Positions 48,015-64,000 of a stretch of DNA of 64,000 nucleotides are shown here, in pieces. The position numbers and the translations under genes are program-made. Where the stretch lies: positions 20,902-84,901 of the forward strand of contig OMIN01000060.1 of the NCBI GenBank assembly GCA_900299145.1, in the 5' to 3' direction. The DNA comes from Betaproteobacteria bacterium (GTDB lineage: Bacteria > Pseudomonadota > Gammaproteobacteria > Burkholderiales > SG8-41). Positions within the stretch are counted from its first letter, which is position 1, and each line of letters opens with the position of its first letter. Under the pieces are notes generated by a model that searched no databases, was not told where the DNA came from, and saw only the letters and a list, made by a program, of their open reading frames with translations.

Positions 48015-48410
48015 TTACAGGGAAGGCGTCGCCTGATGCGCGAAGCGGTGCTCGCGCAATTGCTGACAATGCGCGCAACGTTTGGCCGTGGGGTATGCGC
48101 TTAGCCGTTCATAGGCAACGTCATCGCTGCAGTCTATGCAAGTCCCGTACACACCTTTTTTAATGCGTTCTTGCGCAGCGTCGATATCACGTAGTTCCGT
48201 CACATGACGATCTACCAGGGCCGCGTCCAGATCAACTAATGATCTGGCAAGTGCCTCGTCTGCCGTATCCGTGACTGAGCCGGCCAAATCACGATAATGT
48301 TGCGACTCCGAGGCCGCCAGTTCATCGCGTATGCGTACCGCCAGTTCGCGCGTGCGGCTCCGAAGCTGCGTGGCCAAGCGTTCAAGTTGTGCCTTACTCA
48401 AATGATTCAT
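48015..48410 (-). CDS. DksA/TraR-family C4 zinc-finger protein
   Basis: Start at the ATG at 48410, preceded by GGAGA. The C-terminus carries CIDCSDDVAYERLSAYPTAKRCAHC (CxxC-N17-CxxC). Confidence 0.8.
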   Translation of the reverse strand: MNHLSKAQLERLATQLRSRTRELAVRIRDELAASESQHYRDLAGSVTDTADEALARSLVDLDAALVDRHVTELRDIDAAQERIKKGVYGTCIDCSDDVAYERLSAYPTAKRCAHCQQLREHRFAHQATPSL

Positions 48411-48437
48411 GACAATTTCTCCCATGGCGTTATTCAG

Positions 48438-48478
48438 ATGCTAGGACTGGCAGCTTGGCGCGGCTTGATTCAGCCCCA
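48438..48478 (-). promoter_or_regulatory. FNR/Anr-type promoter (degenerate box) for the DksA-like gene
   Basis: Plus-strand TTGATtcagCCCCA at 48465-48478, a 21-bp spacer, then TAGCAT on the minus strand (48443-48438). Only one half-site is good. Confidence 0.4.
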
Positions 48479-48500
48479 CCCTCTCCATCTAGCCAACAAT

Positions 48501-48526
48501 GCATTTAAAAACAGATAGTTACAGAG
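48501..48526 (-). repeat. AT-rich intergenic repeat, left half only
   Basis: The reverse complement reads CTCTGTAACTATCTGTTTTTAAATGC. Confidence 0.55.
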
Positions 48527-48705
48527 ATATATCCCTCGGAATCCAAGCAACACACTGCACAATTGATATACGTCGTTTGCGCCAGAGGAATAGCCAGAGC
48601 CAGCGACAGCCGCCTCATCAATGCAGAGGATGGGTACGGCCATGTTTTGGCAAACTGACCAAAGCATTCCGTACAGTGCGAATTTCGGACTCTAAGCGCG
48701 CGGGA

Positions 48706-49095
48706 CTATTCAGCCTCTTCGTACGGCCGCGTGTCCTGTTCAACGCTGCGGCGGCGTCTTGCACCAGCCTGCCGTGCACGGGTTTCACCGCGCCGCACTT
48801 GTGCGTAGTCTTCCAGTTGCCGTATCGCAGCGGCAAAAGCATCGCGCAGTGCCACATAAACGTCTTCGTCGTGGTCGTGATTCGCCACAATTTCCTTGCC
48901 CGGCACCACGATATCCAGTCGCACGGAAAACTGCCGCCCCTGATGTTGATGCCTATGCAACGCCTCGGCCATCACCCTGCACGACGTAATCGGTGAAAAG
49001 TACTGTTCGAGTTTTGCCGCTTTAGCCTGGATATGTTCATCCAGCGCTGTGGAATGCGGCATGCCGCGCACGGTTATCTGAGTGGAAATTGACAT
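48706..49095 (-). CDS. hpf: Ribosome hibernation-promoting factor / RaiA family protein
   Basis: 129 aa. ITVRGMPHSTALDEHIQAKAAKLEQYF and VYVALRDAFAAAIRQLEDY match the sigma-54-modulation/RaiA fold pattern. Confidence 0.8.
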   Translation of the reverse strand: MSISTQITVRGMPHSTALDEHIQAKAAKLEQYFSPITSCRVMAEALHRHQHQGRQFSVRLDIVVPGKEIVANHDHDEDVYVALRDAFAAAIRQLEDYAQVRRGETRARQAGARRRRSVEQDTRPYEEAE

Positions 49096-49128
49096 GTTTC
49101 ATTGTGTCCTGTGATGTGTTCAGCGATC

Positions 49129-49169
49129 ATGCTATGTCATCGCCGGGCCTCGCTATTGATTCACGTCAA
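49129..49169 (-). promoter_or_regulatory. FNR/Anr-type class II promoter for hpf
   Basis: TTGATtcacGTCAA at 49156-49169 (9/10 to TTGAT-N4-ATCAA), a 21-bp spacer, then TAGCAT -10 (49134-49129, minus strand). Box centre is 67 nt from the ATG. Confidence 0.65.
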
Positions 49170-49235
49170 AGCGTCGTAATCAATACGGCGAGTGCTGTCG
49201 TGCTCGTCACCGGATAAACGGCTAAAGCGGCACGG

Positions 49236-49676
49236 TTAGTCTCCTCTCACAAGCAACAAGGGGCATGGCGCAACCCGCACAATGCGTTCGGCGACACTAC
49301 CGATCAACAAACGGCTCACGCCACGCCGTCCATGCGTGCCGGCCACCAGTACATCCGCCTTCCAGTTTTTCGCAAGCTCGGCTATAGTGTCCGCCACGTG
49401 ATAGCCACTGGTGACAATTTCTGGCGACTGCACTTCCGGATCAATGCCCGCCGCGAGCGCGGTCTGGCGCGCCTGTTCCACGGCTTCCCTTGCCAGCTCG
49501 CGAGTCCCCTCGACATACGCCCCCGGAAACTGCCCCGCGCCGTACACAATCACCAGATCAATGACGTGAATGATCGCAAGTTTCGCCTTTTGATCAATGG
49601 CAAGCTGAATTGCCTCTTGCAGACCACGTTTTGAAGTTTCGCTGCCGTCCACGGCAACCATGATGCGCTGATACAT
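49236..49676 (-). CDS. Universal stress protein (UspA family)
   Basis: 146 aa with MYQRIMVAVDGSETS and the ATP-binding type C-terminus VLVAGTHGRRGVSRLLIGSVAERIVRVAPCPLLLV. Confidence 0.9.
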   Translation of the reverse strand: MYQRIMVAVDGSETSKRGLQEAIQLAIDQKAKLAIIHVIDLVIVYGAGQFPGAYVEGTRELAREAVEQARQTALAAGIDPEVQSPEIVTSGYHVADTIAELAKNWKADVLVAGTHGRRGVSRLLIGSVAERIVRVAPCPLLLVRGD

Positions 49677-49709
49677 GAAATCCTCCCGTCACAAAGTGAC
49701 TCGTGCAGA

Positions 49710-49750
49710 CATGCTACTCGTCCCTCGCGGCACGGATTTGACTCACATCA
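49710..49750 (-). promoter_or_regulatory. FNR/Anr-type class II promoter for the USP gene
   Basis: TTGACtcacATCAA at 49737-49750 (9/10), a 21-bp spacer, then TAGCAT (49715-49710, minus strand). Box centre is 67 nt from the ATG. Confidence 0.65.
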
Positions 49751-49879
49751 AAGTGTGAAGCGGCCTCCGAATCCCATACACAACAAGCCCGTGCAAGGCC
49801 GCGCGAAAATTGATCGAGAAATATCCACTGACCGTCCTCGAAGCCAAACGCCCCAGCTCACAAGGCCTGGCGCGAACAT

Positions 49880-49914
49880 CAGTAACTGGCTGTTTTTATT
49901 AATTTTTATCGATA
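49880..49914 (+). repeat. AT-rich intergenic repeat
   Basis: CAGTAACTGGCTGTTTTTATTAATTTTTATCGATA. Confidence 0.65.
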
Positions 49915-49957
49915 TGCCAGCTTCCGAATTACCGGATTCCCCACCCTGCCCGGTCTT

Positions 49958-50407
49958 TCACTTTCGCGCATGGCGCTCGTGAAGTTGTTCGCGCGAAACA
50001 ATATGCGAGATGTCAGTCAATTCCTGTGCGAGCATTTCGAGCAGGTCGTCTATGGCTACGATGCCCGTCAGGCGGTTTTCGGAATCCACGATCGGCATGC
50101 GGCGCACCCCTTTGAGCCGCATCAATTCAATGGTTTCGTATACGCCATGATTTTCAGAAACCGTCACCAGATCCAACGACATGATGTCGCCTGCGGTGAT
50201 GACCTTGGCGTCCAGATCCATGGCAAGGAGCTCCACCACAACGTCGCGATCGGTCAACATGCCGACGGGTACACGATTACCATTTTTTTCCTCAACCACC
50301 ACCAAGCTGCCTACGTGATAGTGACGCATCAGTTTGCATGCCGCCTGCACCGTGACGTCCGGACTGATGTAGACAACCTCTCTGTTGCAGATTTTACCGA
50401 TGGTCAT
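49958..50407 (-). CDS. CBS domain pair protein
   Basis: Start at the ATG at 50407, preceded by AGGAG. Two CBS repeats (HYHVGSLVVV; GVRRMPIVD). Confidence 0.85.
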   Translation of the reverse strand: MTIGKICNREVVYISPDVTVQAACKLMRHYHVGSLVVVEEKNGNRVPVGMLTDRDVVVELLAMDLDAKVITAGDIMSLDLVTVSENHGVYETIELMRLKGVRRMPIVDSENRLTGIVAIDDLLEMLAQELTDISHIVSREQLHERHARK

Positions 50408-50481: not shown

Positions 50482-50495
50482 TTGATACAAATCAA
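50482..50495. promoter_or_regulatory. Perfect FNR/Anr box TTGATacaaATCAA in the divergent CBS / kinase-like intergenic region
   Basis: 10/10 match. A possible -10 (TAACAT, minus strand, 50459-50454) lies 22 bp away on the CBS side. Confidence 0.6.
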
Positions 50496-50588: not shown

Positions 50589-50602
50589 TTGATGTGGATC
50601 AG
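50589..50602 (+). promoter_or_regulatory. FNR/Anr-type box TTGATgtggATCAG upstream of the kinase-like gene
   Basis: 9/10 match, centred about 41 nt upstream of the annotated ATG at 50637. Confidence 0.45.
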
Positions 50603-50636
50603 CAGCAGGCATCGGAAATTGTTGTAACAAGTATGC

Positions 50637-52283
50637 ATGGCTGCCGCACCTATCGATTCATTAATCACCACACCTTCGGAAGCAGCGTCGGCGACGTCGA
50701 CGTTGCTGGCGGCCCTGCGCGATCCCGCGATTTACCCACATGCCGTGGAACGTATCGAGGTACTGGAAACCCACATTTCCTGGGTGATTTTGACCGGGTT
50801 GTATGCTTACAAGATCAGGAAGCCGGTGAACCTGGAATTTCTTGATTTCCGCACGCTTGAATCGCGGCGGCACGACTGTGAAGAAGAACTGCGCCTGAAT
50901 CGCCGACTTTCACCTGCCCTGTACGCAGGCGTGGCGCCGATTACCGGCGATCCCGCGCATCCGGAGTTCAACGGCGGGGGCCCGGTCATCGAATACGCGG
51001 TGAAGATGCGCGAATTTCCGCAACAGGCGCTGGCAAGCCGCTTGCTGGACAGCAGCGCGCTGAATGCCACCCACTTTGATGCTTTAGCCAAGCGCCTGGC
51101 AGCCTTTCATCTGGAGGCGGGAATTGCAGCCACCGGCTGCCCTTACGGCAGTCCCGAATCGGTCCTAGGGCCAGTGCGCGACAGTTTCGATCAGATCGGA
51201 CGCCTGCTGCCAGATGGCGCAGATCAAGTGCGTCTGGCTGAACTGCGTGCATGGACTGAGCGGGAATACCATGCGCTTTGGTCCCATTTCCGCGTGCGTC
51301 AGGCGCAAGGAAACGTACGCGAATGCCACGGCGACCTGCATCTGGAAAATATCGTGATGCTGGACGGCGCACTGATACCGTTCGACTGCATCGAGTTCAG
51401 CCCAGCGATGCGCTGGATCGACGTCATGAGCGACGTGGCGTTCCTGTTCATGGATCTGACCCATCACGGACGCACCGATTTTGCCTACCGCTTCCTCAAT
51501 GCCTATTTGGATGCCAGCGGCGACTATGCGGGGCTGGCCGTGCTGCGCTTTTACCGCGTTTATCGCGCGATGGTTCGCGCCAAGATAAGTGCCATACGCT
51601 CATGGCAAGGCAGTGGCAGCGCTAAGGATTGCAAGCTGAAAGCAACCCGCGACTACATCGATCTCGCTGGCCGCTTCGCCCGGGATGGACAAGCCGCGAT
51701 GGTTCTGATGCACGGACTCTCAGGTTCCGGCAAAAGCCAGCTCGCGCAATACCTCTCAGACCATTTGGGCGCTGTCCAGTTGCGTTCCGACCGCGAGCGC
51801 AAACGGCTATGCGGTCTGGCCCCCATGGCTAGCAGTGATTCACCACCCGCCGCTGGCATTTATTCCGCCAACCTGACCGAGGCAACCTACCATCGATTGC
51901 TTGATCTCGCACGTCTGTGCTTGGTTGCGGGCCATGTGGCTGTCATCGACGCCACCTGTCTCAAACGCTGGCAGCGTGACCTGTTCCGTCGGGAAGCCAC
52001 CGCACGGGGCATTCCCTTTGTGATTGTTCAAACGACCGCACCTGAGGCCATTTTGCGCGCACGAATCGCCGCGCGTCTGGCGGCTCACGACAATGTTTCG
52101 GAGGCCGACCAGGCAGTACTCACACACCAACTGGCCCAAGTCGAGGCACTAACCCAGGAAGAATTGACACTCACCCTGCCTATTGACACAGCGGGTGGTG
52201 ATGCCGTGAGCTGTGCAATGGCGGCTCTTCCCCGCGTGCGCGCCAGGCTTGCCGAAGAACACATCAAGCCAAAGCCCCAGTAA
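50637..52283 (+). CDS. Bifunctional-type protein: aminoglycoside-phosphotransferase-like kinase fold plus C-terminal P-loop (AAA_33-like) kinase domain
   Basis: 548 aa. The N-terminal half has ETHISWVILTG, YKIRKPV and HGDLHLENIV (APH/protein-kinase-like catalytic loop). The C-terminal half has the Walker A GLSGSGKSQLA. The start codon is uncertain. Confidence 0.75.
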   Translation: MAAAPIDSLITTPSEAASATSTLLAALRDPAIYPHAVERIEVLETHISWVILTGLYAYKIRKPVNLEFLDFRTLESRRHDCEEELRLNRRLSPALYAGVAPITGDPAHPEFNGGGPVIEYAVKMREFPQQALASRLLDSSALNATHFDALAKRLAAFHLEAGIAATGCPYGSPESVLGPVRDSFDQIGRLLPDGADQVRLAELRAWTEREYHALWSHFRVRQAQGNVRECHGDLHLENIVMLDGALIPFDCIEFSPAMRWIDVMSDVAFLFMDLTHHGRTDFAYRFLNAYLDASGDYAGLAVLRFYRVYRAMVRAKISAIRSWQGSGSAKDCKLKATRDYIDLAGRFARDGQAAMVLMHGLSGSGKSQLAQYLSDHLGAVQLRSDRERKRLCGLAPMASSDSPPAAGIYSANLTEATYHRLLDLARLCLVAGHVAVIDATCLKRWQRDLFRREATARGIPFVIVQTTAPEAILRARIAARLAAHDNVSEADQAVLTHQLAQVEALTQEELTLTLPIDTAGGDAVSCAMAALPRVRARLAEEHIKPKPQ

Positions 52284-52313: not shown

Positions 52314-52370
52314 TCACCGCTCCATACGCCGCAAGCAGACCGGCGCAACCGATTAATAGTGGAGGTCAAC

Positions 52371-53489
52371 GTGCTAATTGGCGTACCCAGGGAAATCAAG
52401 ACACAGGAATTTCGGGTCGGCATGACGCCATCGGCCGCACGCGAAGCCGTGGCGCACGGCCACCACGTGCTGATTGAAACCCAGGCGGGAGCTGGCATAG
52501 GCGCCAGCGACAACGACTATCGCAACGCTGGCGCCGAAGTGGCGAACAGCGCGGACGAGGTGTTTGCGAAAGCCGAACTGATGGTCAAGGTCAAAGAGCC
52601 TCAGGCCGTCGAGCGCCGCATGCTGCGCGAAAATCAGGTGCTGTTTACCTACTTGCATCTGGCGCCCGACCCGGAGCAAACACGCGACCTGATGAATAGT
52701 GGCGCCATCTGTATCGCCTATGAAACTGTCACCGCAGTTGGCGGCAGGCTACCGCTGCTTGCCCCGATGAGCGAAGTGGCGGGCCGCATGTCGATTCAAT
52801 GCGGGGCGCACTGCCTCGAAAAAAGCACCGGCGGCATGGGCGCCCTACTCGGCGGCATACCGGGCGTCGCCCCAGCACGCGTGGTCATCCTTGGCGCGGG
52901 CACTGTGGGTACTCACGCAGCACAAATGGCTGTGGGCACGGGCGCGCAGGTCGTGGTCATCGACAAATCGCTGGAGGCGTTGCGGCACATCGACGCGGCA
53001 TTCAACGGCCGCGTAATGACCGTGTTCAGCAATCGGGACAATATCGAACGCGAAGTATCGCGGGCCGATCTGGTGGTCAGTGGGGTGCTGATTCCCGGCG
53101 GCGCCGCGCCCAAACTCATTTCAAGAGCAACGCTGTCGAAGATGAAGCCCGGCGCGGTCATCGTAGACGTGGCCATCGATCAGGGCGGCAGCGTCGAAAC
53201 CAGCCGCCCCACCACGCATGCCGATCCGACTTACGTCGTTGACCGCGTTGTGCATTACATGGTCACCAACATGCCCGGCGCCGTACCCCGCACGTCAACG
53301 TATGGGTTAAACAACGCCACGTTGCCGTTCACGCTGGCCATTGCGGACAAGGGCTGGCGCAAGGCGTTACGCGACGATCCACATTTGATGAACGGCCTGA
53401 ACGTAGCAGCTGGCCGCATTACCTGCGAAGCCGTGGCCGGCGCATTGGAACTGGACTACGTGCCGCCGCACACCGTTATTAGGCTGTAG
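52371..53489 (+). CDS. ald: Alanine dehydrogenase
   Basis: GTG at 52371, preceded by GGAGG. VLIGVPREIKTQEFRVGMTP, VVILGAGTVGTHAA and VDVAIDQGG are typical of Ald. Confidence 0.93.
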   Translation: MLIGVPREIKTQEFRVGMTPSAAREAVAHGHHVLIETQAGAGIGASDNDYRNAGAEVANSADEVFAKAELMVKVKEPQAVERRMLRENQVLFTYLHLAPDPEQTRDLMNSGAICIAYETVTAVGGRLPLLAPMSEVAGRMSIQCGAHCLEKSTGGMGALLGGIPGVAPARVVILGAGTVGTHAAQMAVGTGAQVVVIDKSLEALRHIDAAFNGRVMTVFSNRDNIEREVSRADLVVSGVLIPGGAAPKLISRATLSKMKPGAVIVDVAIDQGGSVETSRPTTHADPTYVVDRVVHYMVTNMPGAVPRTSTYGLNNATLPFTLAIADKGWRKALRDDPHLMNGLNVAAGRITCEAVAGALELDYVPPHTVIRL

Positions 53490-53527: not shown

Positions 53528-54007
53528 CTACCGTTGCGCCAGGTTACGAAGGTAGAGCACAAGATGCCAAATCTGCTCGTCCGAAAAATCCTTCGATGGC
53601 GGCATGGCGGTATCCGGGGATCCATTCTGAATGATCCAGAACAACTGGCCGTCCGGAATCCCGTTCACGGTTTCTTTGCAGGCAAAATTGCGCGGGGGCG
53701 GACTATACTGGCTGGCCAGCGCGCCTTTGCCGTCACCCCGTACACCGTGACAGATGGCACAAGGCAGTGTCTTGGACTTTCCGTTGTATAACCGCTCTCC
53801 CGTCGCCAGGGATTCGGTTGTGGCGGAGAGTGGGTTGCTGCGGGCGAGATAGTCGGGTGGAGCCTTCCCGGTAAACCGCGGCTGCGGACATTCGCCGATG
53901 GGCGGCAGCCGGCTCTGAGCGGATGCAAAATTGTTTCCAATAAGCGTGCTCAACGCATAGATGATCAGTGCAATGAGCCAATATCTGCCGTTTCCGGACA
54001 TAATCAT
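53528..54007 (-). CDS. Periplasmic mono-haem c-type cytochrome
   Basis: An in-frame ATG at 54007 (or 54001, which has better RBS spacing) gives a signal/anchor segment. One CxxCH motif (CAICH) and a distal Met region (DTAMPP). Confidence 0.8.
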   Translation of the reverse strand: MIMSGNGRYWLIALIIYALSTLIGNNFASAQSRLPPIGECPQPRFTGKAPPDYLARSNPLSATTESLATGERLYNGKSKTLPCAICHGVRGDGKGALASQYSPPPRNFACKETVNGIPDGQLFWIIQNGSPDTAMPPSKDFSDEQIWHLVLYLRNLAQR

Positions 54008-54088: not shown

Positions 54089-54130
54089 ATCATAGATGTT
54101 GCAGCTGATTCGATAGTTGATATTTGTCAA
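54089..54130 (-). promoter_or_regulatory. FNR/Anr-type promoter for the cytochrome c gene
   Basis: TTGATatttGTCAA at 54117-54130 (9/10), a 22-bp spacer, then TATGAT (54094-54089, minus strand). Confidence 0.55.
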
Positions 54131-54343: not shown

Positions 54344-54805
54344 TCATTGCTCTACCGGAAAAGCCGCTGCTTTCCACGCTTCCAATCCACCTGCCAAACT
54401 GCGCACATTGGTATATCCAGCCAAACGCAATACCATAAGGGCAATCGCCCCACGATGTCCCGAACGGCAATACACCATGATCGGCGTAGCACGGTCCTGT
54501 GGAAGAGTACCGATCAGCTGCGCGATCTGCCTTACAGGGATATTACGTGCAGTTGCAATGCGTTCACTCCTGTATTCGGCGGCCTCACGCACATCCAGTA
54601 ACAGCACCCCGCCACTGGCGACCTGCTGGCGGGCGACTGCCGGCCGTACCGTGAAATAATCGTCGGGCATTTCCGCCAGGACCCGTGCCGCGGCCGTGGC
54701 CGCCGGAACATTCATCCAATCCTGCGCAAACGCTGTCTGCAACCCCGCGACAGCAATCAATCCCGGCAATAGGGCACGTATAAGTAATTGCTGAACGCTA
54801 CGCAT
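54344..54805 (-). CDS. Rhodanese-domain sulfurtransferase-like protein, secreted
   Basis: Start at the ATG at 54805, preceded by GGAG. Signal peptide, then LLLDVREAAEY and the active-site loop YCRSGHRG. Confidence 0.85.
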   Translation of the reverse strand: MRSVQQLLIRALLPGLIAVAGLQTAFAQDWMNVPAATAAARVLAEMPDDYFTVRPAVARQQVASGGVLLLDVREAAEYRSERIATARNIPVRQIAQLIGTLPQDRATPIMVYCRSGHRGAIALMVLRLAGYTNVRSLAGGLEAWKAAAFPVEQ

Positions 54806-54883: not shown

Positions 54884-55009
54884 TCACGGCTTCGATGCAT
54901 GCGCGCGAATGTCATCGTTCAGATAACCCTGCCGGTAATGTATGCCGGTTACACCCTCGCGCCAGCTACCGTTTTTCAACAGGAACTTGCGTTCGATTTC
55001 CTGGCCCAT
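54884..55009 (-). pseudogene. Remnant of a CYTH-domain (triphosphate tunnel metalloenzyme) gene: 41 codons only
   Basis: AGGAG RBS plus ATG at 55009 gives MGQEIERKFLLKNGSWREGVTGIHYRQGYLNDD. This carries the CYTH ExExK signature and the conserved RQGYL, then stops. Only 78 nt remain before the rhodanese gene. Confidence 0.45.
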
Positions 55010-55032: not shown

Positions 55033-55073
55033 ATGCTATGGGCGATCTCAATGAAGCGCTTGATGCAGATCAA
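55033..55073 (-). promoter_or_regulatory. FNR/Anr-type class II promoter for the CYTH remnant and rhodanese gene
   Basis: Perfect TTGATgcagATCAA at 55060-55073, a 21-bp spacer, then TAGCAT (55038-55033, minus strand). Confidence 0.65.
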
Positions 55074-55383: not shown

Positions 55384-55686
55384 ATGATGAAAAGACTGTT
55401 GTTGGGGGCGACGTTTGCATCTGCTGTGCTGGCCAGTACGCAATTGCTGGCCGATCCGGCAGATCATCGCCATGGACAGAATGCCCCGTGCACGGGTGCA
55501 AACTGCCCGTCGGTAGCCGCAGCCGGAGAACATGGCCAGCATGGCATGGGCCGCGGCGGCATGCGTGGTCGAATGCAAGCCATGCGTGGGGAGCACGAGG
55601 GTAAGGGCGCCCGCGGCATGCGGCACGATCCGCAAGGCAAAGCAGGGGAAGGCTGTCCGATGCACAGCGAACGTAAGCCCAGTTGA
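55384..55686 (+). CDS. Small secreted His/Met/Gly/Arg-rich protein (possible metal-binding or envelope-stress protein)
   Basis: AAAGGAG RBS plus ATG at 55384. Signal peptide MMKRLLLGATFASAVLAS, then a low-complexity region (HGQHGMGRGGMRGRMQAMRGEHEGKGARGMRHD). A good terminator follows. Confidence 0.6.
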   Translation: MMKRLLLGATFASAVLASTQLLADPADHRHGQNAPCTGANCPSVAAAGEHGQHGMGRGGMRGRMQAMRGEHEGKGARGMRHDPQGKAGEGCPMHSERKPS

Positions 55687-55826: not shown

Positions 55827-58325
55827 TCAACGCGAGCTAGCCGCCCGCCACCGGCGTCCAAGGCATCTCGCGGTTTCGATGGCCACCACACCGCCGGCGC
55901 CAACCGCGATCGCAAGCACGAGGTCCTCAGCAGATAGCGCTTCAAAACGAAAAATCGCTGCCGCCGGCATGACGTACAACGAAGTCGCCAGCGCGGCCAG
56001 CGTAACCAGCACGATCCACCACAGTGCGGGATTCGGCCTGGCGAATATCGCCTTGGAAGACTGCTCGGCAGACCGGTTCAGAATAATCAACGCCAGATTG
56101 CCGAACACAATCGCCGTAAAGGCAAACGCGCGCGCCACACCTTCACTGCGCCCAAGCGCGAGCACCCAGTCGTAGCCGACGGCCACTGCGATCAGCACTG
56201 CTACTCCCGTCCACAGACTATCGCCAACCATATGGCGGTCGAACAGGGGACGCCGGGGATCTCGCGGTGGTTGCAGCATGGCGTCGGCGTCGCCCGCTTC
56301 CGCCTCAAACACAATCGAACAGGCGGGATCGATGATGAACTCCAGAAACACCACGTGCACCGGAAACAACACCGGTGGCCAACCCAAAGCCAGCGGCAGA
56401 AACGCCATGCCCACCGTAGGCACATGCACGGAAATGATGTAGCGCATGGCATTTCGGATATTGCGGTATATCCGGCGCCCCAGACGAACAGTAGAAACGA
56501 TAGAACCGAAGTCGTCGTTGAGCAACACCAGCGCCGACGACTCGCGCGCCACATCTGTGCCGCGCCGGCCCATGGCCACGCCGATATGCGCCGCCTTCAA
56601 CGCCGGCGCATCGTTAACCCCGTCACCTGTCATGGCCACGACCTCGCCAGCAGCCTTATAAGCCATCACCAGCCGCAGTTTCTGCTCTGGCGTGACGCGC
56701 GCGTACACTTGCACGCGCGCTGCTGCTTGAACCAGTTCGGCATCGGTCATCACAGCCATGTCACGGCCGGTGATGGCGCCCGCGCTGACATCAAAGCCGG
56801 CCTGGCGCGCGATGGCCAACGCTGTGCCTGGGTGATCACCGGTAATCATCACGACACGAATGCCCGCTCGCCGGCATTCGGACACCGCCGCCGGCACAGA
56901 GGCGCGCAGCGGGTCGGCCAATGCCACAAAACCCAACCAGCGAAAGGCATAACCTGCGGGATCAGGCAGCCAAGGCGCGTTGTTCCACCGGGCTTCAGCC
57001 ACGGCAAGCAGGCGCAATCCGCGCCCCGCGGCGAGCGCTACCTGTTCCATCGCGGTAGAGCGCGCACCCGCGTCCAGACCGCACAACGCCAGCACGGTTT
57101 CGGGCGCGCCCTTGATCGCCACGCGGCTTTCGCCCTGTGGTGATCGCCAGCCATGGCAAATCGCCAGAAATCCGGGATGCAACGGGTAGTCCACCGCCAG
57201 ATGCCATTCCCTCCTGACACGCCCCGCGTGAGGCGCGACGCTTTCAGCCGTTGCCAAAATCGCCCGCTCCATGGGATCGAAAGGATCCAATTCACAAGCC
57301 AATGCTGCCGCGTCCAGCAACGCCGCAGCCTGCCCGCCGGATTTCATCCACGCGCCATCGCAATACACTTCGGCAACCTGCATGCGGTTTTCCGTCAGCG
57401 TGCCGGTCTTGTCCACGCAAAGAACGGTCGTCGCGCCCAGCATTTCCACGGCCGGTATGCGCCGGGTCAACACACCCTGTCGTCCAATGCGCCATGCACC
57501 CAGCGCCAGAAATACCGTCAGCACCAGAGGAAACTCTTCGGGCAAGGTCGCCATCGCCAGCGTGAGGCCGGCCAGAATGCCCGCCAACCAATCCCCGCGC
57601 AGCAGCGCGTAGTACACCGCAAGCACGATGCACCATGTCACCGCCAGTGCGGCGATAAGCCGTACCACGCGGGCAGTCTCGATCTGCAGCGCTGTCTTCC
57701 CGGCATCGATGGACGCCAGTGATACGCCTATCCGGCCCATCTGCGTATGGCTGCCCGTAGCGGTCACTTCCGCGCGGCCCTGCCCCTGAATCACCAGGGT
57801 GCCGGAAAAGACCTGGACGTCCCGGCCTTCCGGCAAGCCTGTTGATACGGCCTGCTTTTCAACCGGTATCGACTCGCCGGTAAGCAACGATTCATCCACC
57901 CGCAAACCCGTTGCCGACAGCAATCGCGCATCGGCTGGCACACGGTCACCTTCGGACAGAATCAGCAGATCGCCCCGCACTGTCTGGGCGCCCGCAATGC
58001 GTTGCGCCAAGCCGTCCCGTATGACGTGCGCGCGCGGACTGGAAAGATCGCGCAGGGCTTCAAGGGCCCGTTCACTTTTGCGCTCCTGAATCACGGTAAT
58101 GGCCATTACCACCAGTACCGATACCCCCAGCACCAACGCCTCGTGCACATCGCCCAGCAGCAGATAAATGCCGGCAGCCCCCGCAAGCAGCAGCAACATT
58201 GGCTCGCGCACCACTTCGATGGCAATAGCCAGCGTGTTGCGCGGGCGGGCGGCTGGCAGCGCGTTGGGGCCGTCAAGCGCCAGCCGCCGCTGCGCCTCGG
58301 CGCTGGTCAAACCCACCATGGTCAC
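55827..58325 (-). CDS. Cation-transporting P-type ATPase (P2-type, Ca2+/Mg2+-ATPase-like)
   Basis: 832 aa with an N-terminal cation-ATPase domain, TGES, the phosphorylation site CVDKTGTLTEN, MITGDH and GDGVNDAPALK. Confidence 0.95.
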   Translation of the reverse strand: MTMVGLTSAEAQRRLALDGPNALPAARPRNTLAIAIEVVREPMLLLLAGAAGIYLLLGDVHEALVLGVSVLVVMAITVIQERKSERALEALRDLSSPRAHVIRDGLAQRIAGAQTVRGDLLILSEGDRVPADARLLSATGLRVDESLLTGESIPVEKQAVSTGLPEGRDVQVFSGTLVIQGQGRAEVTATGSHTQMGRIGVSLASIDAGKTALQIETARVVRLIAALAVTWCIVLAVYYALLRGDWLAGILAGLTLAMATLPEEFPLVLTVFLALGAWRIGRQGVLTRRIPAVEMLGATTVLCVDKTGTLTENRMQVAEVYCDGAWMKSGGQAAALLDAAALACELDPFDPMERAILATAESVAPHAGRVRREWHLAVDYPLHPGFLAICHGWRSPQGESRVAIKGAPETVLALCGLDAGARSTAMEQVALAAGRGLRLLAVAEARWNNAPWLPDPAGYAFRWLGFVALADPLRASVPAAVSECRRAGIRVVMITGDHPGTALAIARQAGFDVSAGAITGRDMAVMTDAELVQAAARVQVYARVTPEQKLRLVMAYKAAGEVVAMTGDGVNDAPALKAAHIGVAMGRRGTDVARESSALVLLNDDFGSIVSTVRLGRRIYRNIRNAMRYIISVHVPTVGMAFLPLALGWPPVLFPVHVVFLEFIIDPACSIVFEAEAGDADAMLQPPRDPRRPLFDRHMVGDSLWTGVAVLIAVAVGYDWVLALGRSEGVARAFAFTAIVFGNLALIILNRSAEQSSKAIFARPNPALWWIVLVTLAALATSLYVMPAAAIFRFEALSAEDLVLAIAVGAGGVVAIETARCLGRRWRAASSR

Positions 58326-58368: not shown

Positions 58369-58617
58369 TCACGAGGAATCAGCGCATCGAAACAAAGCCG
58401 AGATTTCCGCCTGGGCGTTTTCCAGATCTTCCTCGCAGGCATCTCCCGGCTGAATGTGATGGTATCGATCCGCGCAGTAATACGCCGGGACATCAGCGAG
58501 GTCCATCTCGTCGCTGCTGTCCCATTCGGGAATCTGTGTCGAGTAAGCGGCTACGGGCTGAACCAGCCCGGCCCTGGTAATCCGTGATTTCGTCTTGCCA
58601 GAAGGTTGGGGGCGCAT
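58369..58617 (-). CDS. Hypothetical small acidic protein upstream of the P-type ATPase
   Basis: The in-frame ATG at 58617 has a GGAG 7 nt upstream and lies about 70 nt downstream of an FNR-type box. 82 aa, no recognised family. Confidence 0.4.
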   Translation of the reverse strand: MRPQPSGKTKSRITRAGLVQPVAAYSTQIPEWDSSDEMDLADVPAYYCADRYHHIQPGDACEEDLENAQAEISALFRCADSS

Positions 58618-58652: not shown

Positions 58653-58693
58653 ATGCTAGGCAAGCACCGCCGGCGGGTATTGACACAGATCAA
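58653..58693 (-). promoter_or_regulatory. FNR/Anr-type class II promoter for the small protein and P-type ATPase
   Basis: TTGACacagATCAA at 58680-58693 (9/10), a 21-bp spacer, then TAGCAT (58658-58653, minus strand). Confidence 0.65.
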
Positions 58694-58823
58694 TCATACC
58701 AGCGGCGGCGCGAAGCGCCAGGTCGATTGGTCGAGATCAACACTGAAGGCATAGCAGAAGGCTTGAAATGAAAGAACCGGGTGTAGTTGTCACGCGGTTA
58801 TGCGATTCTCACTACTGCCTGGA

Positions 58824-60368
58824 TCACGATGCCTCCCTTTGTCCGGTGCCAAAGGCCGGGATGACCGCCTCGATCCGGGTCCCCTCGGCCGCGGAGCTGC
58901 TGACCACCAGATCACCGCCCAGCACATGGGCGCGCTCAAGCATACCAAGCAGGCCAAACGCGCGCGCCTTGCGCGTGTCTGCTTCGCTAAAACCGCCGCC
59001 GTTATCGACGATACGCGCCACCACGTTGCCACCGCGGCGCAGCACTTCAACCCCCACGTGATCCGCACCCGAATGCCGCGACACATTGGTCAATGCTTCC
59101 TGCACGATGCGAAAGATGGCAGTAGCGGCATCGCCGCCCACACCAAGATTTTCGTCGGGAATATCCAGATCGACGGGGATGCCGCTGCGTTCCGTAAAAG
59201 TCTGGATCAGCCATTCGAGCGTGGGCACCAATCCCAGATTATCGAGCATCACCGGCCGCAGATCGGCGGCAATTCGCCGCACGGACGCCACGGTAGTATC
59301 GATGAGTTGCTTCATGCCGTCGATACGTTTTACCAGTGATTCCCGCGCCGAACCAGGATTCAGATTCAGCTCGGCCTCGATCGCGGCGACATCCATCTTG
59401 AGCGCGGTCAGCACCTGCCCCAGTTCATCATGCAACTCACGCGCGATGCGGGCTTTTTCTTCTTCGCGTATGGTTTGCAGTGCGAAAGACAATTCCCGTA
59501 GCCTGTCCTGCGATTCGCGCGCCTGCGCTTCAGCCCGCCGATGCACTCGCAACAGATGGTGCAATTCTGCTTCCATGCGCAGGCGCTCGGTGATATCACG
59601 ATAGATGGCAGAAACACCTGCCACCGAACCGTCGCTGCGCTTGACCGGCGAGATTGTAACTTCGACGTCGACTTCGCTGCCGTCCTTGCGTTGGCGCCTG
59701 GTTTGACGCTTGATGATGGCCTCGCCGCGCATCGCGCGATCGCCCAGGCCAATCTGATCCGAAGGGACAGTGGCCGAATACAGCAGGCTGACGTCGCGGC
59801 CCAATACTGCTTCCGGCTCGTAGCCAAACATCCGTGCCGCCGCCCGATTCCAGGACAATATGGCGCCGTCAGCACGCCGGCTTACTATCGCGTCGGAAGA
59901 CGAGTCTATTATGTCAGACTGAAAGCGCATTTTTTCCTGAATGCGTGTGCGCTGAGTGACATCACGCAAAATTGCGGTATAAAACACGCGGCCTGAGCAT
60001 TCTGTGCACGAAATCACGGCATCAACCGGGAATTCTTCACCGTCGGCACGCAAACCCGTCACTATCCGATCGCCATCCATGGCGCGGACCGAATTGGCTG
60101 ACGCTTGGGCGAAATCCACCATGTGCCGCCAGTGCGCCGCGCGAGCGCGCGTGGGAATGAACCTCTCCAGCGGCCCGCCGATGGCCTGTGCCGCATGGCA
60201 GCGAAACATCGCTTCCGCCTCGCGGTTAAACGACACTATGGTTTGCGTTTCATCGACGGTAATTATCGCCAACTTCACCGATTGAACGATCGCCGCCAGC
60301 TGTGCTTCCTGCAACGCCGTCACGCGTACGCTGTTGGCCACTGGCGGCTCCGGCACACCTGCAGTCAT
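58824..60368 (-). CDS. Cytoplasmic PAS-PAS sensor histidine kinase (HisKA_3/NarX-type dimerisation domain)
   Basis: 514 aa with two PAS modules, the H-box ARELHDELGQVLTALK and an HATPase_c domain (DNGGGF, GLLGMLERA). No TM segments. No response regulator gene in the window. Confidence 0.9.
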   Translation of the reverse strand: MTAGVPEPPVANSVRVTALQEAQLAAIVQSVKLAIITVDETQTIVSFNREAEAMFRCHAAQAIGGPLERFIPTRARAAHWRHMVDFAQASANSVRAMDGDRIVTGLRADGEEFPVDAVISCTECSGRVFYTAILRDVTQRTRIQEKMRFQSDIIDSSSDAIVSRRADGAILSWNRAAARMFGYEPEAVLGRDVSLLYSATVPSDQIGLGDRAMRGEAIIKRQTRRQRKDGSEVDVEVTISPVKRSDGSVAGVSAIYRDITERLRMEAELHHLLRVHRRAEAQARESQDRLRELSFALQTIREEEKARIARELHDELGQVLTALKMDVAAIEAELNLNPGSARESLVKRIDGMKQLIDTTVASVRRIAADLRPVMLDNLGLVPTLEWLIQTFTERSGIPVDLDIPDENLGVGGDAATAIFRIVQEALTNVSRHSGADHVGVEVLRRGGNVVARIVDNGGGFSEADTRKARAFGLLGMLERAHVLGGDLVVSSSAAEGTRIEAVIPAFGTGQREAS

Positions 60369-60562: not shown

Positions 60563-61090
60563 CTATTTGGGTGCGCCGTCACTGGCCATGATCTGCTGCC
60601 TCAACGTCAACTGGTTCAGCATGGATGCCGTGAATGCCGCATAAAGAAAATATTTCATCACTTTACCCAGCAGTACTGAAATGAACACATGGGATAGCGG
60701 CATGCCCAACAAGGCGCATACGATCAGCACCGGGGTCTGGCTCACGGGAAGGCTCGCGAAGGCTATCAGCACCACAAATCCGAAGTGTTCCACCCAGCGC
60801 AAACCGGCCGCCCACTCGCCCGAGCGGACCATGCCGGGCATCAGTCCGGCGATGGCTTGCGTGCCATATTCCGCGACCAGCCATGCTAAGAGAGTTGCGC
60901 CAAGCGCACTGCCGATGGCACAACTGAATGCCACGCGCACCCATTGTCGCCGTTGCAGCGCAACCAGCGCGCACAGGGCTGGCACAAAGGCCACCACCAG
61001 CAAAGTCGCGGCAAACGCCAACGCGGCAGAGGCCAGCGGAAACAAAGGCCGATTGGCCAACTGCGAAACCCTTGTGACCACGCCAGCCAT
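60563..61090 (-). CDS. Integral membrane protein (YqaA/DedA-VTT-like, tentative)
   Basis: Start at the ATG at 61090. About 175 aa with several hydrophobic segments. Family assignment is tentative. Confidence 0.5.
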   Translation of the reverse strand: MAGVVTRVSQLANRPLFPLASAALAFAATLLVVAFVPALCALVALQRRQWVRVAFSCAIGSALGATLLAWLVAEYGTQAIAGLMPGMVRSGEWAAGLRWVEHFGFVVLIAFASLPVSQTPVLIVCALLGMPLSHVFISVLLGKVMKYFLYAAFTASMLNQLTLRQQIMASDGAPK

Positions 61091-61179
61091 GTAATCGGCC
61101 ACGGCACATATCCTCAGTAGGTAGAGCCCTCTTTGAATCCTGCAACTGCCCTTTGAATGGGCCTGATTCCTTGCGCGCC

Positions 61180-61219
61180 AGTGTATGCCCCCGGAGCCAC
61201 GCTCCATTGACACAGATCA
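61180..61219 (-). promoter_or_regulatory. FNR/Anr-type box upstream of the membrane-protein gene
   Basis: TTGACacagATCAA at 61206-61219, identical to the ATPase box. A possible -10 (TACACT, 61185-61180, minus strand) lies 20 bp away. Confidence 0.5.
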
Positions 61220-61361
61220 ACAGGGTACCGCGCGCGGAAAAAACCATTGTGCTTGATGCCGCTACGCGGAAAACAGCACGTCTAAGGCCTGAGTCGAGAG
61301 CCACGTGAAGTCCGCCCGGATTTCACCGGCTGAATCGCTCGACACGCGCGTCCACGCAAAG

Positions 61362-62723
61362 TCATGCTGGGGGCGCCGCGAGACCGCTGCGCCGCAGGAA
61401 ATCTTCTACGATACCGGAGAGACCCGGCGTCTCTAAATCGGCAAACTCATAACGCGCCTGCACAACCGGTTTATTCACATCGATCAGCGCCGCGAGGTCG
61501 ATCGGGGTGGCGCAGACCACCACGTCCGCCGGCGTCGCATTGATCGTGTCTTGAAGATCAGCCAATTGGAGCGCGCTGTAACCCATCGCGGGAAGCACTG
61601 CCGCCAGATGGGGGTATCTCTCGTAGACGGCTGCCATGCGCGGTGCGGCATACGAGCGCGGATCCACGACGACACGGGCTCTTGCCTTAACCGCCGCCAC
61701 GTAGCCCGCACCATGGGGCATGCCGCCATGGGTCATCGTCGGGCCGTCCTCGACCACCAGTACGCGCTTGTCCAACACCGCCGCTTCGTTGTCGAGCCGC
61801 ACCGGAGAACCCGCGCGCAACACGGGTACTCTCGAATTAACCTGCCGTGCGCCGGAGAGCGCGGTTTGCAGGTCCCCGGTAGGGGCGGCATCGCTTTTGG
61901 CGATAATAATCACATCCGCCATGCGCAATACCGCCTCGCCCGGGTGGTGCGTATCATGCTGCCCCGGCCGCAGCGCATCGACCAGCACAATATGCAGGTC
62001 GGGCTTGATGAACGGAAAATCGTTGTTGCCGCCATCCCATAAAATGATATCCGCAGACGACTGTGCCAGCGCCAGCACACTGGCGTAATCCACGCCGGCG
62101 TATACAACATTCCCGGCTGCCAGATGCGGTTCGTATTCCTCGCGCTCCTCCAGAGTGCAGTCTGCGGCCGTGATATCCGCGCGCGAGGCAAAACGCTGCA
62201 CAGCCTGCCGCGCAAGATCGCCGTAGGGCATTGGATGCCGAACCACCGCAGTTCGTAGATCATGCCTGCGCAGCCGCGCCGAAAGCCAGCGCGTGGTTTG
62301 TGATTTGCCGCAGCCGGTTCGTATCGCGGATATTGCGATCACCGGAATCTTTGCTTGGAGCATGGTGCGCGCCGGCCCCAGCAACTCGAAGTCCGCCCCC
62401 AATGCCAGCGCGCGCGAGGCCAGGTGCATCACCTGCGCATGCGTCACATCGCTATAAGCAAATACCACGCGGTCGAATGGATGCCGCATGTGCAGGTCCT
62501 CCAGACAACTCTCCTGGACTATCGGGATACCGTCCGGATATAACGCCCCTGCCAGCTCGCGCGGATAGCGGCGGTCTGCAATGCCCTCGATCTGTGCGCC
62601 GGTAAAAGCCACGACCTCAATGGCGGGATCATCCCGGTACGCCATATTGAAGTTGTGAAAATCACGACCCGCCGCGCCAAGAATGACAACACGAGTGCGC
62701 GGTTGGGCCACGAGCGTGTTCAT
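61362..62723 (-). CDS. COG2403-type P-loop protein (family usually annotated cyclic 2,3-diphosphoglycerate synthetase-like / predicted GTPase)
   Basis: 453 aa with RVVILGAAGRDFHNFN and the P-loop-like AIRTGCGKSQTT. Recognised from memory of the family, not searched. Confidence 0.6.
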   Translation of the reverse strand: MNTLVAQPRTRVVILGAAGRDFHNFNMAYRDDPAIEVVAFTGAQIEGIADRRYPRELAGALYPDGIPIVQESCLEDLHMRHPFDRVVFAYSDVTHAQVMHLASRALALGADFELLGPARTMLQAKIPVIAISAIRTGCGKSQTTRWLSARLRRHDLRTAVVRHPMPYGDLARQAVQRFASRADITAADCTLEEREEYEPHLAAGNVVYAGVDYASVLALAQSSADIILWDGGNNDFPFIKPDLHIVLVDALRPGQHDTHHPGEAVLRMADVIIIAKSDAAPTGDLQTALSGARQVNSRVPVLRAGSPVRLDNEAAVLDKRVLVVEDGPTMTHGGMPHGAGYVAAVKARARVVVDPRSYAAPRMAAVYERYPHLAAVLPAMGYSALQLADLQDTINATPADVVVCATPIDLAALIDVNKPVVQARYEFADLETPGLSGIVEDFLRRSGLAAPPA

Positions 62724-62786
62724 TACACGGCCTCCACCCGTTGTTCTTGAATTCGATTCATTCGAACCCGGCCGTCGCTTGATTTT

Positions 62787-63593
62787 TTACGCCACTAAAA
62801 CTACTGGGCATCGCAGCATATCCACCAGCGCCGTCAGGGCGGCACGATCGGTATCACACGCAATGCCTCCCCATAGCAACAGATGCGGCGCGTAGGTTTC
62901 TGTAACCCGCGCCACCGTGGCGGCGTCCCTATGTTTCAGAGTGACAAACAGGGTTTGGGTATGCACTGTCGCCTGCTCCCGCCTGCTCTCCAGCTGCCGC
63001 CGCGCCCGGGCACGCAACAGTGCCGGATCGCTATCCCCGCTCGTCACGGCAATCACCAGCCGGCTGCGGGTATCGCGCACCAAGTCAAGGGCAGCGTTGA
63101 GGGCGCGATGCGAGGCCGGTGTGCCATCAAACACAACCAGCATCGCCCGCCGCGCTGAATCGATAGTCTGCAGCGGCGCGGATAAACTGGCCGAGTACCT
63201 TCCGGCATGGCCGAACACCACGACATCAAGCGCCTGCATGGCGTCAAGGACGCGGTCCGTCGATGCACCGCGCACCACCTCGAACGACCACCGCAGACGC
63301 CGCGCCGAAGCCGTCTGCACAACGAGAGTCTGCAACGCCTGTGCCTGCCGCTGCAGTGTTCGCTGTACTTCGTTGGATTGCATGCGCCGGGGTGACGCGC
63401 CGGACCAAGTGACTTCGTGTGTAAAAGGCAGGTCCGCCGAGCGGATGAGATTGACGTCTTCGATAAAGACGCCTTTCAGCTCCGCGTCCAGCCGACGGGC
63501 CAGTGCAGCTGCCGTATCCATGGCTTGAGCACCCAACGGTGAATCATCGCAACTGACGATGACCCGTAGAGCGGTGAGATTGCGCTCAATCAT
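62787..63593 (-). CDS. Tandem USP-like (adenine-nucleotide alpha-hydrolase fold) protein, tentative
   Basis: The ATG at 63593 overlaps the upstream stop (ATGATTGA). Two USP-like halves, each starting with a beta-strand (LRVIVSCDDS, MLVVFDGT) and ending in a CPVVLV-type C-terminus. No canonical ATP-binding G-x2-G-x9-G(S/T). Confidence 0.5.
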   Translation of the reverse strand: MIERNLTALRVIVSCDDSPLGAQAMDTAAALARRLDAELKGVFIEDVNLIRSADLPFTHEVTWSGASPRRMQSNEVQRTLQRQAQALQTLVVQTASARRLRWSFEVVRGASTDRVLDAMQALDVVVFGHAGRYSASLSAPLQTIDSARRAMLVVFDGTPASHRALNAALDLVRDTRSRLVIAVTSGDSDPALLRARARRQLESRREQATVHTQTLFVTLKHRDAATVARVTETYAPHLLLWGGIACDTDRAALTALVDMLRCPVVLVA

Positions 63594-64000
63594 CTTTTTT
63601 TCTGTCACCACGATGTCGGCGCGAGCGGCCGCCACCGGCGAAACTCTGGTGTAGCGCGGTCAGTTCTCTCAATCGCTTCGCTACGCGGCCGTTGATGGTG
63701 GACCCCACTCCACCGGTGACGTACGGCTCGCCCGCCGGTATACCCGTCAGCACCTCAATGGCCTGATCAACAGTACCCACCGGAATGACGTGGAATCGGC
63801 CCGCGGCGGCGGCATCGACCACGTCCTGCCGCAGCATCAAATCCTCGGCATTGGCGCCGGGAATCAGCACACCCTGGCTGCCCGTTAATCCGCGCCGCTG
63901 GCAGATGTCGAAAAACCCTTCGATCTTGTCGTTCACCGCGCCGATCGCCTGCACTTGCCCCAACTGGTTGACGGACCCGGTCACGGCGAAAGACTGCGAA
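63586..64000 (-). CDS. Lon-like protease, C-terminal S16 proteolytic domain (5' part lies outside the window)
   Basis: VTGSVNQLGQVQAIGAVNDKIEGFFDIC, GLTGSQGVLIP and IPVGTVDQAIEVLTG are typical of the Lon-related (LonB/'Lon-insertion') family. The ORF runs off the window edge. Confidence 0.8.
   Translation of the reverse strand, partial: SQSFAVTGSVNQLGQVQAIGAVNDKIEGFFDICQRRGLTGSQGVLIPGANAEDLMLRQDVVDAAAAGRFHVIPVGTVDQAIEVLTGIPAGEPYVTGGVGSTINGRVAKRLRELTALHQSFAGGGRSRRHRGDRKKDD

Follow-up and report, generated by a model that had tools for sequence, protein, structure and literature searches.

Does a run of growth-arrest and low-oxygen genes on the chromosome of a freshwater bacterium form a single oxygen-responsive system, and what kind of regulator would read its promoters? 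The question is raised by a stretch of 64,000 nucleotides (nt), hereafter the window (positions 20,902 to 84,901 of contig OMIN01000060.1, assembly GCA_900299145.1), for which an earlier reading of the letters alone, the original prediction, had proposed an Anr/FNR-controlled island for anoxic persistence. We find that the window comes from Cognatundibacterium (Undibacterium) luofuense, a freshwater member of the Oxalobacteraceae (Burkholderiales), and contains a probable chromosomal low-oxygen stress cluster that extends from approximately window position 47.7 kb to 67.2 kb (about 19 kb, with about 18 genes in about 12 transcription units) and that overruns the window end by about 3.2 kb on a contig that overlaps this end exactly (L001). 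The cluster is likely to be under the control of an activator of the CRP/FNR family, most probably of the FNR/Anr type, that is encoded elsewhere in the genome. Control by a regulator of this family, as first proposed, is supported by the enrichment of FNR-type boxes, by their geometry relative to a -10 hexamer, by the conservation of boxes in related loci, and by genes for FNR proteins with a cysteine motif in such loci. Loci labelled L001, L089, and so on are contigs fetched for comparison, including metagenomic ones (L089, L090, L093, L171, and L172).

FNR-type boxes and promoter geometry

TTGAT-N4-ATCAA is the FNR/Anr consensus, and nine matches to it had been reported from the intergenic regions of the cluster. 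Their clustering is real; however, only two of the nine are exact, six have one mismatch, and the site at 48465 has three. Two of the reported positions were off by one (49737 is 49738, and 61206 is 61207) and two sites, at 58727 and 50112, had been missed. The only exact matches in the window are those at 50482 and 55060, with 0.04 expected. The boxes of the cluster that lie in the window are listed below by window position; no strand is assigned to a box, centre distances run to the ATG of the gene served, and hexamers lie downstream of the box.

48465..48478: degenerate box TTGATTCAGCCCCA; left half intact, three mismatches in the right half
49156..49169: box upstream of hpf; one mismatch; centre at 67.5 nt; TAGCAT after 21 nt
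49738..49751: box upstream of usp; one mismatch; centre at 68.5 nt; TAGCAT after 21 nt
50112: box inside the CBS-pair gene (cbs), in the coding region; one mismatch
50482..50495: box serving cbs; exact; centre at 81.5 nt; TAACAT after 22 nt
50589..50602: box serving the APH/AAA_33 fusion gene (aph-aaa) and the alanine dehydrogenase gene (ald); one mismatch; centre at 41.5 nt; TAACAA after 22 nt
54117..54130: box upstream of the cytochrome c gene; one mismatch; TATGAT after 22 nt
55060..55073: box upstream of a CYTH gene remnant (CYTH') and the rhodanese gene; exact; centre at 57.5 nt from the remnant's ATG; TAGCAT after 21 nt
58680..58693: proximal box of the promoter of p82 and the ATPase gene; one mismatch; centre at 69.5 nt; TAGCAT after 21 nt
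58727..58740: distal box of the same promoter, 47 bp upstream of the proximal one; one mismatch; no -10 hexamer at class II distance
61207..61220: box upstream of the VTT gene; one mismatch; TACACT after 21 nt

With the extension past the window end included, the cluster holds three exact and nine one-mismatch sites, 11 of them intergenic. The whole window contains 13 sites with at most one mismatch against 1.3 expected (maximum of four in 100 shuffles), and its last quarter alone holds 10 of the 13. Among intergenic sites of this quality, 11 fall in the 3.5 kb of intergenic DNA in the cluster and one in the 5.1 kb elsewhere (binomial p = 3.6e-4). The density of sites is 0.64 per kb in the cluster compared with 0.048 per kb in 1.26 Mb of control sequence, which consists of unrelated loci around relatives of the P-type ATPase; the enrichment is strong. 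The same motif emerges from a count that presupposes no motif: among all perfect 4-nt inverted repeats with spacers of 0–12 nt, TTGA-N6-TCAA is the commonest in the intergenic DNA of the cluster, with nine copies and none in 5.6 kb of other intergenic DNA, and the runner-up is this motif shifted by one base. A CRP (cAMP) box was considered and rejected, as the sites have a TTGA...TCAA core and not TGTGA...TCACA.

In the class II arrangement of FNR and CRP promoters, the box ends at -35 and the hexamer occupies positions -12 to -7. The geometry in the cluster fits this arrangement. A TAnnnT hexamer lies 21–22 nt from the box on the gene side at 8 of the 12 sites, compared with a background frequency of 0.84% (p ~1e-14, in a test that was devised after the alignment had been seen). 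The hexamer is TAGCAT at five sites (hpf, usp, CYTH'-rhodanese, p82-ATPase, and the dksA-like half-site), TAACAT at cbs, TATGAT at the cytochrome c gene, and TACACT at the VTT gene, and weaker hexamers are found at a gap of 22 nt in front of aph-aaa (TAACAA), lonC (CATAGT), and the formate/nitrite transporter gene fnt (TGTTAT). The degenerate site at 48465, when read towards the dksA-like gene, is likewise followed by TAGCAT after 21 nt and has its centre 61.5 nt from the start codon. Promoters with canonical -35 and -10 elements number only 2 in the cluster, where 7.7 would be expected. The locus thereby provides a set of about ten predicted class II promoters, whose box centres would lie near -41.5 and whose -10 hexamer (TAGCAT) is unusually uniform. 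That these promoters arose by copying of a single repeat was considered but dismissed, as their sequences differ outside the box and the -10 hexamer.

Of the approximately 12 transcription units inferred, 10 have a box of the form TTGA(T/C)-N4-(A/G)TCAA followed 21–22 bp later by a -10-like hexamer. The units are, in order:

Unit 1: dksA-like (half-site only)
Unit 2: hpf
Unit 3: usp
Unit 4: cbs
Unit 5: aph-aaa-ald
Unit 6: cytochrome c gene
Unit 7: CYTH'-rhodanese
Unit 8: p99 (no box)
Unit 9: p82-ATPase (tandem boxes)
Unit 10: VTT-kinase
Unit 11: lonC-usp-like-COG2403
Unit 12: fnt

The distance from box centre to start codon is 57–117 nt, with the exceptions of lonC (170.5 nt) and aph-aaa (41.5 nt). 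Because the latter distance places the predicted transcription start on the ATG, the aph-aaa transcript may be leaderless, and an alignment of its N-terminus with those of homologues gives no hint of a later start.

If the boxes were chance matches or nonfunctional relics, and the genes were grouped for other reasons, one could point to the mismatch that most sites carry, to the box in the coding region at 50112, and to a similar site outside the cluster. The latter is the sole intergenic FNR-like site elsewhere in the window (14048, TTTATCCGTATCAA); it lies in an AT-rich gap and is without the -10 spacing of the cluster. Against this stand the 13 sites observed where shuffles give four at most, the restriction of sites to intergenic DNA of the cluster, the fixed -10 spacing, and the conservation of both sites and spacing in loci whose proteins are 60–80% identical to those studied here. 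We regard such an explanation as extremely improbable. As a separate observation, the site at 14048 lies 131 nt upstream of an open reading frame (14186–14646, + strand) that is missing from public gene calls and whose translation contains a metalloprotease-like HEFRH (HExxH) motif.

Related loci and the nature of the regulator

Homologues of the APH/AAA_33 fusion were traced to 82 contigs. A box, mostly exact, lies just upstream of the homologous gene in 12 loci; these include four of the five closest (57–68% identity), in all four of which the box is exact. Boxes also recur at nearly the same distance from other genes: cbs orthologues have theirs at 83.5 nt (L090) and 82.5 nt (L124), compared with 81.5 nt here, and the dksA-like orthologue in L089 has a good box 61.5 nt from the called start, which matches the distance of the half-site in C. 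luofuense. Orthologues of the dksA-like gene adjoin APH/AAA_33 genes in L089, L091–L093, and L124, with a box in four of these five, and the two genes are divergent in four loci. In at least eight loci (L094, L101, L106–L108, L118, L142, and L154), the gene immediately in front of the APH/AAA_33 gene encodes HPF, and in another lineage (L098, L100, L113, and L115) this position is taken by an fnr gene. The neighbourhood of HPF and fnr genes hints that this uncharacterised fusion protein may take part in ribosome hibernation when oxygen is low.

Two loci that were found through homologues of the sensor kinase (L171 and L172, 68% and 62% identity) represent orthologous clusters. Their COG2403 proteins are 74–77% identical to the one described here and their p82 proteins 43–49%; L171 additionally has the ATPase (83%) and L172 the VTT protein (62%), the gene of which lies beside boxes. 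In both loci p82 is encoded behind tandem boxes (46 bp and 54 bp apart) with a TAGCAT -10 hexamer, and both also carry USPs (universal stress proteins) and a full-length CYTH gene. L171 contains 11 boxes (6 exact) and L172 contains 9 (5 exact), and the TAnnnT spacing is kept at 25 of the 44 boxes of related loci. A further locus of 21.5 kb with a G+C content of 64.8% (L093) has five exact TTGAT-N4-ATCAA sites among genes for a USP, alanine dehydrogenase, and homologues of the dksA-like, APH/AAA_33, and PAS-kinase proteins. Together, L089, L090, L093, L171, and L172 suggest that clusters studded with FNR boxes are common in Burkholderiales-like bacteria.

Neither a CRP/FNR nor a NarL-type gene is present in the window or in the 8.7 kb beyond it, which bears out the original prediction, according to which the regulator is encoded outside the window. 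Related loci are more informative. L172 encodes two CRP/FNR proteins with a CxxCx5C motif and a central Cys, and L171 encodes one, the called start of which omits the region of the Cys motif. The FNR homologues of L098, L100, L113, and L115 are 39–41% identical to Escherichia coli FNR, and the translated FNR proteins of L113 and L118 carry the Cys motif. Because related loci encode FNR genes with this motif, an iron–sulfur sensor of the FNR/Anr type is favoured as the putative regulator. The TTGA-N6-TCAA core is, however, common to FNR-family paralogues. The boxes might thus be read by a FixK-type protein under FixLJ or by a Dnr or NnrR protein that responds to nitric oxide (NO), in which case the cluster would sense oxygen indirectly or would respond to NO. 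To our knowledge, FixK and Dnr lack the CxxCx5C and central Cys motif, and it is this motif, in its Cys122-like form, that all the CRP/FNR proteins of L172, L113, and L118 have. Points that speak for such a paralogue are the formate/nitrite transporter gene at the cluster end, nap nitrate reductase genes in a box-bearing locus of a relative, the lack of a regulator gene in the cluster to inspect, and a precedent in the Burkholderia cepacia complex, in which the Anr-like BCAM0049 is the homologue of Burkholderia dolosa FixK and is regarded as being under FixLJ control (PMC6127331, PMC9104464). On balance, we consider a paralogue of this kind rather unlikely.

Several observations weigh against an FNR/Anr-type activator as the regulator of the whole cluster. 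Only 3 of the 12 boxes with at most one mismatch are perfect, the dksA-like promoter has a half-site only, p99 and the kinase gene are without boxes of their own, and the spacing test was, as stated above, post hoc. The box itself does not separate FNR/Anr from FixK, Dnr, or NnrR, and a CRP/FNR gene is absent from the window and the 8.7 kb that follow. Moreover, relatives of the P-type ATPase in 80 loci (48–66% identity) show no synteny with the cluster, and in only one of these (L071) is there a box upstream of the ATPase gene, approximately 780 bp off; membership of the ATPase in the regulon appears to be lineage-specific, because close relatives elsewhere are without a box. Finally, a literature search on the physiology of C. 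luofuense found nothing on oxygen use.

Under control by an FNR/Anr-type protein, a fall in oxygen would allow the [4Fe-4S] cluster of the protein to assemble, and the activator, thereby switched on, would bind as a CRP/FNR-family dimer around -41.5 at class II promoters that have no -35 element. The genes turned on would encode factors for translational shut-down and stress (HPF, the DksA-like protein, USPs, the CBS-pair protein, and the APH/AAA_33 fusion), proteins for redox balancing (alanine dehydrogenase, cytochrome c, and rhodanese), the P2-type ATPase for ion homeostasis, LonC for proteolysis, a formate/nitrite channel, and a second sensor, the FixL-like haem-PAS/HisKA_3 kinase. Both the oxygen response and a role in persistence or survival are, like the identity of the regulator, what we infer from gene content, boxes, and related loci.

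The probable haem-PAS kinase and comparison with known low-oxygen systems

The kinase contains two PAS domains, and the first of these, PAS1 (residues ~20–147), matches the haem domains of the FixL proteins from Bradyrhizobium japonicum and Sinorhizobium meliloti (E = 1e-10) and also E. coli DosP. His79 of PAS1 aligns with the His of the sequence RSRHDSY in the F-alpha helix, which in B. japonicum FixL serves as proximal ligand of the haem, and is invariant in 20 homologues. The Arg of the GRIVTG strand is also conserved in PAS1, whereas FixL Arg206 and His214 are not. From these alignments, PAS1 is a probable haem-binding domain. The transmitter is of the HisKA_3 type, and we know of no characterised example of a haem-type PAS domain joined to HisKA_3. 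No response-regulator gene is adjacent to the kinase gene here. In L171 and L172, in contrast, the orthologous kinase gene overlaps a gene for a NarL/GerE regulator, and the kinase operon lies behind its own FNR box.

These features raise the alternative that this kinase, with a distant NarL-type regulator, is the master switch in a manner resembling DosS/DosR, and that the boxes are secondary. The similarity of PAS1 to the haem domains of FixL and DosP with its invariant proximal His, the overlap of orthologous kinase genes with a regulator gene, and the parallel between the gene classes of the cluster and the DosR regulon (PMC3721108) would all fit. Arguing in the other direction, the cluster and its surroundings are without a NarL-type gene, the FNR box is the only recurrent inverted repeat in the palindrome count, and an FNR box stands in front of the kinase operon of L171 and L172. 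Because of this last arrangement, the kinase would be placed downstream of an FNR-type factor and not above it, and we judge a kinase-led switch to be very unlikely.

A reading that joins both sensors is conceivable, but we hold it only tentatively and doubt it more than we credit it. The cluster would be part of a two-step oxygen-sensing cascade, in which an iron–sulfur FNR-type factor turns on the FixL-like haem-PAS/HisKA_3 kinase and the NarL-type partner of the kinase then drives a second wave of genes, making it a counterpart of DosS/DosR in Proteobacteria. At the same time, HPF, the APH/AAA_33 fusion, the DksA-like protein, the CBS pair, and USP may constitute an old, regulator-independent module for hypoxic hibernation. 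In it the APH/AAA_33 protein and HPF would act as partners, and the module may have come under DosR in Actinobacteria and under FNR in Proteobacteria. The proposed cascade from FNR to the haem-PAS/HisKA_3 kinase and the putative conserved module of HPF with APH/AAA_33 are the less expected threads of the analysis and lay outside the original prediction.

The closest known system is the low-oxygen-activated (lxa) locus of Burkholderia cenocepacia J2315, which comprises 50 genes with 2- to 240-fold induction at 6% oxygen and has 17 intergenic TGA-N6-TCA motifs that have been likened to Anr/Fnr boxes (Sass et al. 2013, PMC3721108). Its content includes six USPs, a cytochrome c, a cation ATPase, kinase/regulator pairs, and Anr-like regulators; deletion mutants have a defect in anoxic survival; and its overlap with the DosR regulon was stated explicitly (PMC3721108). 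The comparison with lxa that the original prediction had drawn is apt (PMC3721108). Both are multi-operon chromosomal clusters of Burkholderiales with a TGA-N6-TCA core in most intergenic regions, and both encode, at the level of gene class only, USPs, a c-type cytochrome, a cation P-type ATPase, one or more two-component kinases, and a protease. Unlike lxa, the C. luofuense cluster has about 18 genes in about 19 kb, and its USPs consist of one canonical Usp and one Usp-like protein. Whereas BCAM0287 and two kinase/regulator pairs are encoded inside lxa, neither an Anr-like nor a response regulator is encoded inside this cluster. The cluster adds HPF, the DksA-like protein, the CBS pair, APH/AAA_33, alanine dehydrogenase, rhodanese, LonC, and COG2403, and is without the polyhydroxybutyrate (PHB), acetate kinase, alcohol dehydrogenase, ribonucleotide reductase, and alpha-crystallin genes listed for lxa. 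Because an FNR/Anr-like motif, richness in USPs, and a DosR-like flavour have already been published for lxa, our finding is confirmatory and not surprising; it extends this type of locus from the B. cepacia complex to an environmental species of the Oxalobacteraceae and places poorly understood proteins in a low-oxygen context, namely the APH/AAA_33 fusion with its links to HPF and FNR, COG2403, and the haem-PAS/HisKA_3 kinase.

In Pseudomonas, the targets of Anr are reportedly scattered over the genome, whereas those proposed here are clustered. In Pseudomonas aeruginosa, USP genes depend on Anr and are required by the cells to survive anoxia (Trunk et al. 2010, cited in PMC3721108), and the box consensus, TTGAT-N4-ATCAA, is the same. 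The DosR (DevR) regulon of Mycobacterium tuberculosis shares with the cluster an HPF-like protein, USPs, a CBS pair, a CtpF-type ATPase, and a HisKA_3 haem kinase (a probable one here) inside its own regulon; Pfam finds the hallmark classes named at the outset, and the CBS-pair protein matches Rv2626c. However, DosR is a NarL-type regulator with its own box, whereas the cluster has an FNR-type palindrome and no NarL-type gene, and the kinase would sense through PAS and not GAF domains. Given these differences in regulator family and motif, the cluster appears to work like the DosR regulon without being a member of it. The APH/AAA_33 fusion may be the equivalent of Rv2004c, a protein on which a literature check yielded nothing usable. 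With regard to FixL (B. japonicum and S. meliloti; PDB 1DP6 and 1D06), PAS1 aligns over the whole haem domain, but the C. luofuense kinase has HisKA_3 instead of HisKA with a FixJ partner, and it is an orphan whereas its orthologues pair with NarL/GerE regulators.

Gene content, extent, and chromosomal setting

All gene classes that had been listed for the cluster, from DksA/TraR to the Lon-like protease, are present at the stated places according to Pfam (for COG2403, according to the JGI name). We used the gene calls of public contigs that encode identical proteins instead of those of a caller based on G+C content at third codon positions (GC3), which mis-called several cluster genes. The genes are as follows (window positions and strand):

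48015..48410, -: DksA/TraR-family C4 zinc-finger protein (dksA-like), 131 aa on matching contigs; Pfam zf-dskA_traR, 8.4e-10
48706..49095, -: short ribosome hibernation factor of the HPF/RaiA type (hpf); Pfam Ribosomal_S30AE, 2.4e-16
49236..49676, -: universal stress protein of the UspA family (usp); Pfam Usp, 4.8e-36
49958..50407, -: CBS-pair protein (cbs); two Pfam CBS domains
50637..52283, +: aminoglycoside-phosphotransferase-like kinase fold fused to an AAA_33 P-loop kinase (aph-aaa); Pfam APH and AAA_33
52359..53489, +: alanine dehydrogenase (ald); Pfam AlaDh_PNT_N/C; 75-nt gap from aph-aaa, without its own box
53528..54007, -: exported c-type cytochrome; Pfam Cytochrome_CBB3/Cytochrom_C
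54344..54805, -: exported rhodanese; Pfam Rhodanese, 1.1e-19
54884..55009, -: 41-codon CYTH-domain gene remnant (CYTH'), beginning MGQEIERKFLL; 78 nt from the rhodanese start
55387..55686, +: small exported His/Met/Gly-rich protein of 99 aa (p99), called on matching contigs; without its own box
55827..58325, -: P2-type cation-transporting ATPase of the CtpF-like class; Pfam Cation_ATPase_N, E1-E2_ATPase, Hydrolase, and Cation_ATPase_C
58369..58617, -: conserved hypothetical protein of 82 aa (p82), called on matching contigs; no family match; heads the ATPase operon
58824..60368, -: soluble PAS-PAS-HisKA_3-HATPase_c sensor kinase (Pfam)
60563..61102, -: VTT/DedA-like membrane protein; Pfam VTT_dom, below cut-off
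61362..62723, -: COG2403 "predicted GTPase" of 453 aa (JGI name); otherwise a weak LpxK-like P-loop match
62787..63635, -: divergent tandem-USP-like protein; weak Pfam Usp match (1.8e-6, 29 bits with a cut-off of 24)
63586..64000, -: 3' end of the gene for a LonC-type Lon-like protease (lonC), which starts beyond the window

Matches of the dksA-like protein to NCBIfam DksA-like models are below cut-off. The closest solved relative of the CBS-pair protein in PDB is M. tuberculosis Rv2626c (E = 1.5e-14), whereas PDB searches returned no solved relative of the APH/AAA_33 fusion and nothing for the COG2403 protein. The ald gene is probably cotranscribed with aph-aaa, and the same gene order is found in L090; likewise, the VTT gene probably heads an operon that includes the kinase gene. 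The CYTH remnant shares 74% identity with the N-terminus of the 352-aa CYTH protein encoded in L172. The FNR box of the remnant now stands in front of the rhodanese gene, which points to rearrangement or decay within the cluster. The p99 protein has no Pfam or NCBIfam match and is possibly metal-binding.

The host assignment follows from the APH/AAA_33 protein, which is identical to WP_339941206.1 of Undibacterium luofuense (now C. luofuense). On its left, the cluster is bounded between a TctC gene, which ends at 47676, and the dksA-like gene. On its right, L001 contains the complete lonC gene, which is divergent from fnt, and the intergenic DNA between the two holds two further boxes, one of them exact. 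The genes past fnt (GSP_synth, DUF350, TctC, CDP-OH_P_transf, and HtpG) are without boxes. LonC as called on matching contigs has 810 aa and the domains LonC_helical, AAA_32, LonB_AAA-LID, and Lon_C. On L001, positions 6706–9138 encode this single 810-aa product, whereas the corresponding region of another contig (L003, 5855–8287) is called as products of 236 and 568 aa; because the two versions differ by two substitutions in 2.6 kb and by no indel, lonC appears to have a premature stop in some populations.

Cluster genes have a lower GC3 than the other genes of the window (0.656 vs. 0.719, p = 2e-5), with the lowest values for the dksA-like (0.55), rhodanese (0.56), and hpf (0.59) genes, and the intergenic fraction in the cluster is twice that outside. 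The lower GC3 may reflect foreign origin or low expression. It is the only sign that would suit an island in the sense of a mobile element, a reading that we set aside, as searches of the window found no tRNA and no Rfam family and there is no integrase among the called genes. The remainder of the window is ordinary core chromosome with rpoE-rseAB-degP-lepA-lepB-rnc-era-recO-pdxJ-acpS, uvrC, and TRAP and TctC transporters. At window positions 6690–10090, the gene for a NIT-domain (nitrate/nitrite-sensing) chemoreceptor precedes one for a fusion of a Ser/Thr kinase with a cyclic nucleotide (cNMP)-binding domain; the pair has no box and is possibly relevant to nitrogen-oxide or low-oxygen behaviour.

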